Program-made: the position numbers and the translations under genes
Part shown: piece by piece, positions 59,570 to 61,910 of the stretch
Numbering within the stretch: the first letter of the stretch is position 1
Layout: every line of letters starts with the position of its first letter
Assembly (NCBI GenBank): GCA_027859085.1
Contig: JAQIBJ010000013.1
Location: 1,372-65,371 of the forward strand
Length of the DNA stretch: 64,000 bases
Direction: 5' to 3'
Source of the DNA: Mycoplasmatota bacterium
GTDB taxonomy: Bacteria; Bacillota_I; Bacilli_A; Izemoplasmatales; Hujiaoplasmataceae
Notes under the pieces: generated by a model
Told to the model about the DNA's origin: nothing
Databases searched by the model: none
The model's input: the letters and a program-made list of their open reading frames with translations, nothing else

Positions 59570-60577
59570 TTATTCTTCGTCTAAAGAATATCTTAAAGTA
59601 TAGACTGCACCTTCCATGAAAGTTTCATAGTTAGTATTGTCAACCATTTCTGTATCAACTAAGTATAAGCCTTCTACAGTGTTTCCTTCAAGTACATCAA
59701 TACCTAATTGGATAGCTTCTACAACCATTGCTGGTGAGAATGAGAAAGTAACTTGTTTGATTCCTAAATCTTCATAGTGATCAAATAAGTTTAGTAATTC
59801 TCTTGGAGCACTTACTGCTGATACTAATTCGATTCCAGAAATATCAAAGCTTCCATCATATCCTTCTAATGCAGCCAATACACCTGCAGCAACTTCAGCA
59901 TCATGAGTAAAGATACCTTTGATTGCTTCAACGGTTGCTTGGTCAGATGCAGTTAAAAACGTTTCCATTTGACCTTGAGCAGTGTCTTTACTCCATCCAG
60001 TTGACCATTCGTTAACTAAATTGAAGTTAGCATCTGCTGTACTCCAAAATCCATCAGAACGTTGGGTAGGAACAGTTGAGTTGTCTCCCTTAAATTCAAG
60101 AATATCAACTTCACCTGCAGCTAATTCAGTTGCAAAGAAATCATTGAAATATTCACCAGTTTCTTCACCAATTGTATCATTGTCTCCCATTAATTCTGCC
60201 ATCTCATCAAAGTTTGTAATAAGTCTGTCATAAATAATTAATGGAATATCTGCATCCAAGATTTCTTGAGCAGCAGATTTAACTTCGTCACCATTATGTG
60301 GCCATAAGACGATTACGTCAACACCATCAGCGATAACTTTTTCAATGTCTTGAGCTTGTTGAACAACATCGTCTGAAGTCAAGAATTGATAATCGTAACC
60401 ATATTCCTCAGCAAGACGTTGAGTTCCGGCTTGAGCATGTTGGATACTTTCGCCTAAGAAACCATGAGTTGCACTTGGCATGATTACAGCGATTTCTTTT
60501 GAATCGCTTCCACCATTACAACCCGCTAAGGCAACAACAGCAAATAACGTCAAAAATAAAGCAATTAATTTTTTCAT
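59570..60577 (-). CDS. Sugar ABC substrate-binding lipoprotein
   Basis: Lipobox LAGC; periplasmic-binding-protein type 1 features (IPLIIYDR, R..GF, W); AGGAGG RBS. Confidence 0.92.
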   Translation of the reverse strand: MKKLIALFLTLFAVVALAGCNGGSDSKEIAVIMPSATHGFLGESIQHAQAGTQRLAEEYGYDYQFLTSDDVVQQAQDIEKVIADGVDVIVLWPHNGDEVKSAAQEILDADIPLIIYDRLITNFDEMAELMGDNDTIGEETGEYFNDFFATELAAGEVDILEFKGDNSTVPTQRSDGFWSTADANFNLVNEWSTGWSKDTAQGQMETFLTASDQATVEAIKGIFTHDAEVAAGVLAALEGYDGSFDISGIELVSAVSAPRELLNLFDHYEDLGIKQVTFSFSPAMVVEAIQLGIDVLEGNTVEGLYLVDTEMVDNTNYETFMEGAVYTLRYSLDEE

Positions 60578-60634
60578 TCTTTTTTTCTCCTCCTAAATTA
60601 TATTATATTTATTATTAATTAATAAAAGCTGTGT

Positions 60635-61681
60635 TCAACATAAGTGTTGATATGGTTTAAATATATCGACAGGAAATGGTTTTTCAGATATATCTTTATT
60701 TTTTATCATAGTTTCAGTTGAAATAGCATATTGAAGCATAAATTTTTCTTGTTGGTTAAACTCTAACTTGTAATTTAGACTCTTCATGAATCTAAACCAC
60801 ATTAAATATCCTTCAAGATGCTTTGTCGAAACACCTTTGAATCTTTTAAACCAGGATTTCAATTCACTGTGATATTGATTCATAACACCTAGATTGTAAT
60901 CACCCAACTTATGTTTTCCAGATGGTATTTGATGTAATTCACATGCTAAATTCTTAGAGACTTCTTTATAAGCTGATTTACTGTCCGTGGTAATTCTACT
61001 GTGATTTACAATTTTAGTATCTAAAGATTCATAGATATCTTCTGCAAGGGGATTCCCTTGACCGATTATCTTAGTTAGTACTTGATCTGTTTCATCTATA
61101 GCGATTAATACACACACTTGTTCATTACTTAAACCTCGTTGAACACCTGCTCTCCCCCGTTTTTTCGGTCTCCTTGGCATACTTTTATTATGCCAAGGCC
61201 CTTTTAAATTAAGTAAAAAGTAGGTTTCATCTATTTGAATATCACCACTTAATTGGCTTTCCGCTTCATATTCAGCCATTGCTTTTATAATCTTATGACG
61301 CCAGTTAAAGGCGGTCGTTTTTGATATACCAACTTCTATAGCTATCTGACGTAAAGATAGACCATAAAGCATACATCTGATGTAATCAGACCACTGCTTA
61401 TAAGTTTTCTTTGTATATTTTACAATTGATTTACTAGATATAGAACTTGTTTTAGCTGTTTCTTTATCTAAATACCTTTGGCTACCATTCTTAGTTTTAC
61501 CATATTTTACTAAGTTAGCTGATAATGCTCTTTCTCGGAAGATAATCTTTACAAGTGCATCAGCTGCTTCATTAACGGCATCTTGATTAGCCATCATGGT
61601 CTTTAATAAATCATTATATTCATCCGCACATAAAGCATTGATGAGTGGCATTATATCTTTGGTCATACTAGTTTCAATCAT
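60635..61681 (-). CDS. IS1595-family transposase (ISPna2-like DDN type)
   Basis: HTH SLRQIA..VGISKTTAFNWRHK, IDETYF, TTDSKSAY, NQYHSELK, FKGVSTKHL..YL; ATG 61681 after AGGAG; stop codon inside the TIR. Confidence 0.92.
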   Translation of the reverse strand: MIETSMTKDIMPLINALCADEYNDLLKTMMANQDAVNEAADALVKIIFRERALSANLVKYGKTKNGSQRYLDKETAKTSSISSKSIVKYTKKTYKQWSDYIRCMLYGLSLRQIAIEVGISKTTAFNWRHKIIKAMAEYEAESQLSGDIQIDETYFLLNLKGPWHNKSMPRRPKKRGRAGVQRGLSNEQVCVLIAIDETDQVLTKIIGQGNPLAEDIYESLDTKIVNHSRITTDSKSAYKEVSKNLACELHQIPSGKHKLGDYNLGVMNQYHSELKSWFKRFKGVSTKHLEGYLMWFRFMKSLNYKLEFNQQEKFMLQYAISTETMIKNKDISEKPFPVDIFKPYQHLC

Positions 61682-61699
61682 GTTTGGTATTCTCCTAAA

Positions 61700-61819
61700 A
61701 AATGTCCTTAAGCAACCAGCTTGAAGGTTAAGATTCGTCGCCAAACAGAAACTCGGTTATCAAGCTGGTTGATTAAAGACATTTAATCAAAAGATTATTA
61801 TTCCGTGCTTCTGTTTGGC
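61700..61819 (-). ncRNA. Putative structured leader RNA of the IS1595 transposase (two interleaved helices)
   Basis: 61740-61756 pairs with 61803-61819 (15/17) and 61700-61724 pairs with 61760-61784 (23/25); TTGTTA-17-TAAAAT promoter places +1 near 61819. Confidence 0.6.
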
Positions 61820-61910
61820 AATAATATTTTACCAAACTTTTTAATTTTTAACAATCATTATTTTCTATTATCAACACTTATGTTGAACACAGCATTAATA
61901 AATAACTATT

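Follow-up and report, generated by a model that had tools for sequence, protein, structure and literature searches.

Between the promoter and the transposase gene of an insertion sequence (IS) in a Mycoplasmatota bacterium lie 138 nt in which two long stretches of complementarity cross each other, raising the question of what such a leader does. The sequence analyzed here, referred to as the window, is a stretch of 64,000 nt from this organism (GCA_027859085.1, contig JAQIBJ010000013.1, positions 1,372–65,371 of the forward strand). A preliminary description had read the segment as an RNA encoded by an IS1595 element, either a pseudoknot or a conformational switch. The element, the homologs of its leader, and the folds available to both are considered below.

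The IS1595 element and its leader

The element is an intact IS1595-family insertion sequence of 1268 bp (60627–61894, minus strand), flanked by a sugar ABC-transporter operon on one side and the gene for a LacI-type regulator on the other, as judged from the translations of the neighbors. In the part of the family account cited here, IS1595 elements are characterized by terminal inverted repeats and an 8-bp target duplication (PMC8101967), and the window's element has both: inverted repeats of about 26 bp at 61869–61894 (upstream, minus strand) and 60627–60652 (downstream, plus strand), and an 8-bp duplication at 61895–61902 (upstream copy) and 60619–60626. A nested MITE remnant, which the preliminary description had named as a finding that would refute it, is absent, as the element holds one terminal-repeat pair and one target duplication. 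Its sole gene (60635–61681, minus strand) has an intact frame and encodes a transposase of 348 aa with a DDE_Tnp_IS1595 domain (PF12762, E = 4.4e-11), in agreement with the family named in the preliminary description. This is the single full copy in its assembly, and the named relatives of the transposase come from Izemoplasmatales and Acholeplasmataceae.

The same account gives every IS1595 group except IS1016 an N-terminal zinc finger (PMC8101967). In the alignment, the four zinc-ribbon cysteines are missing from the window's transposase (P0001) and its 12 closest aligned relatives, together with a short deletion, and are present in the other 19 rows. Because all four cysteines are absent, the window's element was filed to no IS1595 subgroup. 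The cysteine-less form has nonetheless been mobile, since one genome (G220) carries six identical copies, five of which have distinct 8-bp target duplications.

The leader is read on the minus strand, to which all of the following coordinates refer, and its four arms were found where the preliminary description had placed them, in the order A-B-A′-B′. Arm A (61803–61819) pairs with A′ (61740–61756) to form the 17-bp helix P1, and arm B (61760–61784) pairs with B′ (61700–61724) to form the 25-bp helix P2, with linker L1 (18 nt, 61785–61802) between A and B and linker L3 (15 nt, 61725–61739) between A′ and B′. On this transposase-sense strand, P1 comprises 15 Watson-Crick pairs, one G-U pair, and one A.A mismatch, and P2 comprises 23 Watson-Crick pairs, one G-U pair, and one U.C mismatch, so that a G-U pair does take the place of one mismatch in each helix, as had been claimed. 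B′ stops at 61700, 3 nt ahead of the Shine-Dalgarno sequence (61692–61696), and a U6 run at the base of P2 (61697–61702) is a candidate intrinsic terminator tail.

Smaller hairpins are predicted around these helices. Hairpin C (61769–61790), the third hairpin of the preliminary description, is seen in the predicted fold of the leader's 5′ part and, in the P1 state, would sequester arm B's 5′ half. A 3′ hairpin (61706–61727), whose loop complements the part of B left free, would do the same for B′. In the P2 state the end of A′ is predicted to refold with L3 into a small hairpin, P4 (61736–61748), and the L1 segment 61794–61787 is predicted to pair with the Shine-Dalgarno sequence once P2 forms.

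A promoter scan recovered the extended -10 promoter reported earlier, a predicted sigma-A-type site (61826–61854) with the -35 box at 61854–61849, TG at 61834–61833, the -10 box at 61831–61826, and the predicted +1 at 61819, where arm A begins. A segment upstream of +1 (61830–61837) could pair with the beginning of arm A when transcripts read through from upstream. The fold of the leader has z-scores of -7.1 (sense strand) and -5.3 (opposite strand), and for neither strand is any of 200 shuffles equally stable. The weaker of its crossing stems scores 18.6, a value that can be set against random 200-nt windows of the same genome, of which 10/2500 reach 11 and 0/2500 reach 15.

Some further features of this genome and locus were noted. 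A second, multi-copy IS1595 element of the same genome is collapsed at contig ends (the ends of C4 and C98, the starts of C7 and C34), and the C7 and C34 ends carry the same promoter, arm A, and beginning of arm B. A near-consensus promoter-like site (11/12) lies just within the transposase gene, in the sense direction (61677–61650, minus strand). Contigs of all three metatranscriptome runs of a saline spring study cover 59600–59971, in the sugar-binding-protein gene beside the element; they reach only this neighboring gene and are uninformative on the transcription of the element.

A family of covarying leaders

Transposase relatives were gathered from genome, metagenome, and viral collections and by family-, order-, and class-level genome searches, and their upstream regions were scanned with a crossing-stem detector. 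Same-genome duplicate loci and identical leaders were removed, as were L176, a false model match, and L179, which equals L178, before folds and linkers were counted (L178 and L179 are identical elements of G115 contig C49 in direct tandem, 1154 bp apart). The upstream regions yielded 33 distinct full leaders, whose transposases are 28% to 73% identical to that of the window; with 11 more from a covariance model, the total is 44.

The covariation that an RNA structure predicts, and on whose absence the preliminary description would have given way, is pronounced. In a sequence-only alignment of the 33 leaders, 34 of 36 pairs changed on both sides (P1 12/12, P2 22/24), these counts being of cells over related sequences rather than of independent events. 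Paired cells make up 92.8% of 1173, compared with 76.1% in shuffles (0/500 as high) and 29–47% when slid. The strand bias proposed as a sign of RNA also extends to the homologs, with 91 G-U cells on the sense strand against 18 A-C cells. Sequence is conserved at the base of P1 and in the middle of P2 down to 28% protein identity.

The covariance model holds the P2 pairs only and includes the primary sequence of P1, but not its pairing. It matches 12/151 genomes of the order and 7/150 of the phylum. Of 13 new places found by it, 12 have P1 as well, and 11 lie ahead of an ORF matching the transposase profile; one other precedes an apparent broken remnant, and one is a false match.

The -10 box lies 6 nt (28/33) or 7 nt (5/33) before P1 in these homologs and mostly carries the TG of an extended promoter. 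The first base of the transcript is therefore predicted to be paired in P1, as the preliminary description had put +1 at about the first base of arm A. The in-frame upstream extension of the transposase ORF, the frame that was scanned, is open for 1–42 codons and is not conserved. In Rfam, the window's leader reaches the gathering score of no family, the sub-threshold matches being mir-2483 (21.6 of 75 bits) and StyR-143 (16.2 of 176), and 16 homologous loci returned only tRNAs. No RNA was found described for IS1595 leaders in the literature searched, mostly non-subscription papers, and the author of the preliminary description knew of none; the main text of PMC5737381 does not mention IS1595, and its 224-motif supplement, outside this check, could hold such a motif.

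With strong covariation, a G-U bias on the sense strand, a predicted start at arm A, and no Rfam match, the proposal of an IS-encoded structured RNA has held up, and the region can be taken with high confidence to be one. The leaders form a strongly covarying family in several lineages of low-GC Bacilli, for which no earlier description was found.

Not every IS1595 element has such a leader. Many others, ISSag10-type elements among them, have short leaders without crossing helices, and 0/21 leaderless IS1595 loci, ISSag10-type elements included, match the leader model. In the viral collection the crossing-stem detector found no crossing helices at 53 loci, and the plasmid and viral collections contributed distant transposases only. 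On a quick tree of 102 rows, leader presence needs 8 gains or losses compared with 26.7 in shuffles, where the group without leaders takes in truncated and deleted copies and L013, L031, and L032 are omitted as too short. The leader is clustered on the tree without occupying one clean clade, and a single origin is not established.

Some relatives have lost parts of the leader. It is deleted or truncated in L044, L135, L064, and L008; the deletions in L044 and L135 run between short direct repeats inside the leader, and that in L064 fuses arm B to the gene start. In the leaderless relatives L070, L110, L148, and L152, a simple hairpin is predicted whose span begins ahead of the promoter and reaches the ribosome site, and this hairpin resembles the IS10-type protection from read-through.

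Two folds and the competing explanations

The two crossing helices of an H-type pseudoknot are present in the leader, and both covary. Both can stand at the same time only if L1 spans P2, for which a coarse model requires about 13 nt. In 19/44 leaders L1 is 0–2 nt, too short for a helix of 23–25 bp (L032, L034, and L036 were mis-segmented in the linker count; L036 is not among the 19). For this reason P1 and P2 are most likely alternatives in the modeled folds rather than parts of a stable pseudoknot, so that of the two possibilities in the preliminary description the switch is favored and the standing pseudoknot is not.

Each alternative is a complete nested fold, computed for all 44 leaders. 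State 1 consists of P1, the inner hairpin on B, and the 3′ hairpin on B′, whereas state 2 is the P2 rod, in whose loop a small hairpin forms. In nested-only energy models, state 2 is the more stable in 32/33 leaders, by 3.3 kcal/mol in the window and by a median of 7.9 kcal/mol over the 44. The terminator-excluding alternative fold that defines an attenuator would be supplied by the computed P1 state in the 44 leaders, with geometric exclusion in 19/44.

The accessory helices are partly supported and less firm than P1 and P2. Compared with shuffled L1 sequences, hairpin C reaches p = 0.01 in the window and p <= 0.05 in 10/24 leaders; compared with shuffles, the 3′ hairpin reaches p = 0.33 in the window and p <= 0.05 in 10/43. 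P4 includes one covarying pair (G-C/G-U/A-U) and is weak against shuffles (2/43), and the pairing of L1 with the ribosome site beats shuffled linkers in 2/24 only. An L1-L3 helix was rejected as a general feature, being strong in 5/23 leaders but with p = 0.6 in the window. An anti-Shine-Dalgarno sequence in L1 and hairpin P4 were likewise rejected as general features, as both fall within composition expectation in most leaders.

A rival reading is that in long-linker members, the window's included, both helices form together as a threaded, truly knotted RNA. When the window's 17 + 25 bp are fully paired in the coarse model, loop paths compatible with L1 = 18 and L3 = 15 nt produce a 5_2 knot or a trefoil, and an unknotted form requires L1 of at least 28 or L3 of at least 19 nt; the control pairs of 6+6 bp and 12+12 bp gave an unknot and a trefoil, respectively. 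This coarse model traces the phosphates under an assumed geometry and leaves an L3 margin of just 4 nt, and the knots were named from determinant values. Threading would be feasible for a terminated RNA of about 125 nt, because its 5′ end (+1) and its 3′ end (U-run) adjoin the helices. In the portion of PMC4829277 cited here, interleaved helices of at least 10 bp are prime knot candidates and the best listed pair has 13 and 25 bp, and one natural RNA knot is known according to the available parts of two further papers (PMC13725558, PMC11218946). The knot is, however, impossible in the 19/44 leaders with L1 of 0–2 nt, and since these short-linker homologs cannot form both helices it is not the conserved trait of the family; hairpin C and P4 also compete with the arms. 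A knot in the long-linker members is thus unlikely. The bolder version, in which the terminated leader of these members would be a deliberately encoded trefoil or 5_2 knot and the family would gate expression by strand topology instead of strand competition, is also unlikely, if by a hair less so.

Three further explanations place the function elsewhere. The terminated leader might act in trans as a small RNA, either serving the transposase as a cofactor or sensing copy number through pairing with the transcripts of other copies. Its own promoter and the U-run would yield a discrete RNA, and the sequence kept in the P1 base and P2 middle at 28% protein identity would suit such a role. Yet the leader invariably lies directly 5′ of the transposase, and inspection by eye of the insertion targets in two genomes (6 and 5 copies) showed AT-rich sequence only and no guide-like match. 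Many IS1595 relatives do without it, as the 0/21 leaderless loci matching the model attest, and the leader is therefore unnecessary for IS1595 transposition in general; a trans-acting RNA has a small probability. Comparably small is that of a switch thrown by an outside signal, whether an antisense RNA, as in pIP501, or read-through from a host promoter, the classic case of IS protection. An opposite-strand -10-like hexamer about 61 nt into the gene, present in several members of the window's subclade (11/12 in one), is explained by conserved Asp/Glu-Tyr-Asn codons. The best antisense promoter scores average 8.3 against 8.4 in shuffles over the 33 leaders, and no conserved antisense promoter across these leaders was found beyond shuffles. 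As for read-through, the sequence upstream of +1 pairs with arm A better than shuffles do in 8/33 leaders, all of the window's subclade, but the read-through barrier is lower by more than 1 kcal/mol in a similar number of leaders with native (11/33) and shuffled (10/33) upstream sequence. Read-through-assisted refolding is not supported on this ground, the computed barrier not being lowered; the direct-path barriers (median 31 kcal/mol), which leave pseudoknotted intermediates out of account, are upper bounds. Much the least probable is that the repeats act as DNA, as protein-binding inverted sites or as a single-stranded structure in transposition. Both arms are partly conserved in sequence, G-T pairs are possible in single-stranded DNA, and such motifs are computationally hard to separate from RNA (PMC5737381). 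Nevertheless, pairing starts exactly at the predicted +1 in 33/33 leaders and stops at the U-run or the ribosome site, the strand bias follows the transcript, and the element is already equipped with ordinary terminal repeats and 8-bp duplications.

Predicted control of the transposase

The reading preferred over these is that the two folds are exchanged in cis. That alternative folds control transposase expression is probable on the modeled structures, and hardly less so is the fuller statement that the leader is a cis-acting two-state folding switch limiting transposase synthesis. State 1, with P1 and hairpin C, would form first during transcription, because A′ is synthesized ahead of B′. 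P1 would confine B in a closed loop, and because of this closure B′ could pair with no more than roughly one turn of B as long as P1 stays shut; once P1 opens, the leader would refold to the P2 rod of state 2. In the window's state 2, P2 followed by U6 would resemble an intrinsic terminator, and the ribosome site would be covered. P1 may then serve as a kinetic anti-terminator, delaying completion of the terminator helix so that some polymerases pass. Only fresh mRNA would be extended and translated, and only briefly, until refolding to P2 shuts translation. Such brief expression would hold the transposase low and near its own element, a cis preference that leans on general properties of IS transposases. 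The trigger could be time alone, a protein, or an antisense RNA, with time as the best guess.

The output of the two states appears to differ between leaders. In the window, opening the ribosome site has a computed cost of 2.3 kcal/mol in state 1 compared with 5.0 kcal/mol in state 2, and across the family the predicted opening is costlier in state 2 for 22/44 leaders and in state 1 for 14/44. That P2 is the OFF state in the window's element is, on these models, about an even bet. In a short class (L025, L165, L171–L175, L178, and L184–L186), L3 is complementary to the Shine-Dalgarno sequence, and a decoy resembling that sequence follows arm A. Members such as L025, L165, L173, L178, and L185 are predicted to close the site with L3 in state 1 and to have L3 withdrawn by P2, a reversed polarity. 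Because the predicted polarity is reversed in 14/44, the leader is read as a timed-refolding module that can be coupled to either output. Arm A is repeated within the first codons of L166 and L183 (an 11-bp match to A′) and just ahead of the start codon in the window's subclade (61689–61682 in the window), and a freed A′ could therefore cover the start region as well.

Control of translation by the leader is so far a prediction, and termination, which the preliminary description had not raised, is from the modeled folds at least as likely. At least 5 U occur in the 8 nt after P2 in 30/33 leaders, a count made without shuffled controls in AT-rich hosts and starting two columns within the base of the helix. 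The candidate terminator at P2 was not called by a short-loop terminator scan, because its loop of 35 nt far exceeds the limit of the scan.

Relation to known systems and significance

Other mobile elements offer partial precedents. In the attenuation system of pIP501, to which that of pT181 is comparable, terminator and anti-terminator share strands, unlike P1 and P2, whose exclusion is largely geometric. IS10 and IS50 are protected by read-through sequestration, an effect that computation does not support for the IS1595 leader. IS110 encodes a bridge RNA, an IS-encoded guide RNA.

Closer comparisons rest on the cited portions of the respective papers. In IS200, a stem-loop in the 5′ UTR of tnpA covers the Shine-Dalgarno sequence and keeps the transposase low, alongside a left-end terminator and the antisense RNA art200 (PMC4513863). 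The window's leader is predicted to be alike in lowering transposase through an IS-leader structure that covers the Shine-Dalgarno sequence, but IS200 has one nested stem-loop, a terminator upstream of the promoter, and an antisense sRNA, whereas the IS1595 leader has two long crossing helices downstream of +1 that form alternative folds. The repR leader of pIP501 also governs the rate-limiting gene of a mobile element by termination through alternative folds in low-GC Gram-positives, and it needs a countertranscript (PMC4981023); by promoter scores over 33 leaders, none was found for the IS1595 leader. RNA-IN/RNA-OUT of IS10 resembles it in damping transposase post-transcriptionally and in loop-initiated pairing that grows to a long duplex (PMC4513863), although the pairing is intermolecular in IS10 and intramolecular here. 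The A-B-A′-B′ order and knot-capable lengths are shared with the ColIb-P9 repZ and pMU407 repBA pseudoknots and with synthetic X-Y-X′-Y′ knots (PMC4829277, PMC13725558), but no helix pair in the table of PMC4829277, in the part cited, matches P1 and P2 (17 and 25 bp) in length, and many homologs cannot form both. A conserved structured RNA beside an IS enzyme likewise recalls the omega RNA of IS200/IS605 (PMC10055086) and the IS110 bridge RNA; unlike these guide RNAs, the leader is missing from many relatives and accompanies a DDE transposase with ordinary terminal repeats. The flanks of 11 IS copies, inspected by eye, are AT-rich, and no match to the leader was seen. With no antisense RNA found and a different architecture, the IS1595 leader is a member of neither the IS200 nor the pIP501 type.

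IS1595 elements are relatives of the eukaryotic Merlin transposons and carry resistance genes in some groups. The control of their transposases is little described, and no structured RNA for IS1595 was found in Rfam or in the literature searched. The long-linker leaders exceed the natural-knot candidates in the cited parts of the published work in helix length, which makes the question of natural knots testable on a 125-nt RNA. More broadly, the natural short- and long-linker forms, the apparent reversal of polarity, and the deletion alleles provide a comparative series on co-transcriptional folding, topology, termination, and translation.
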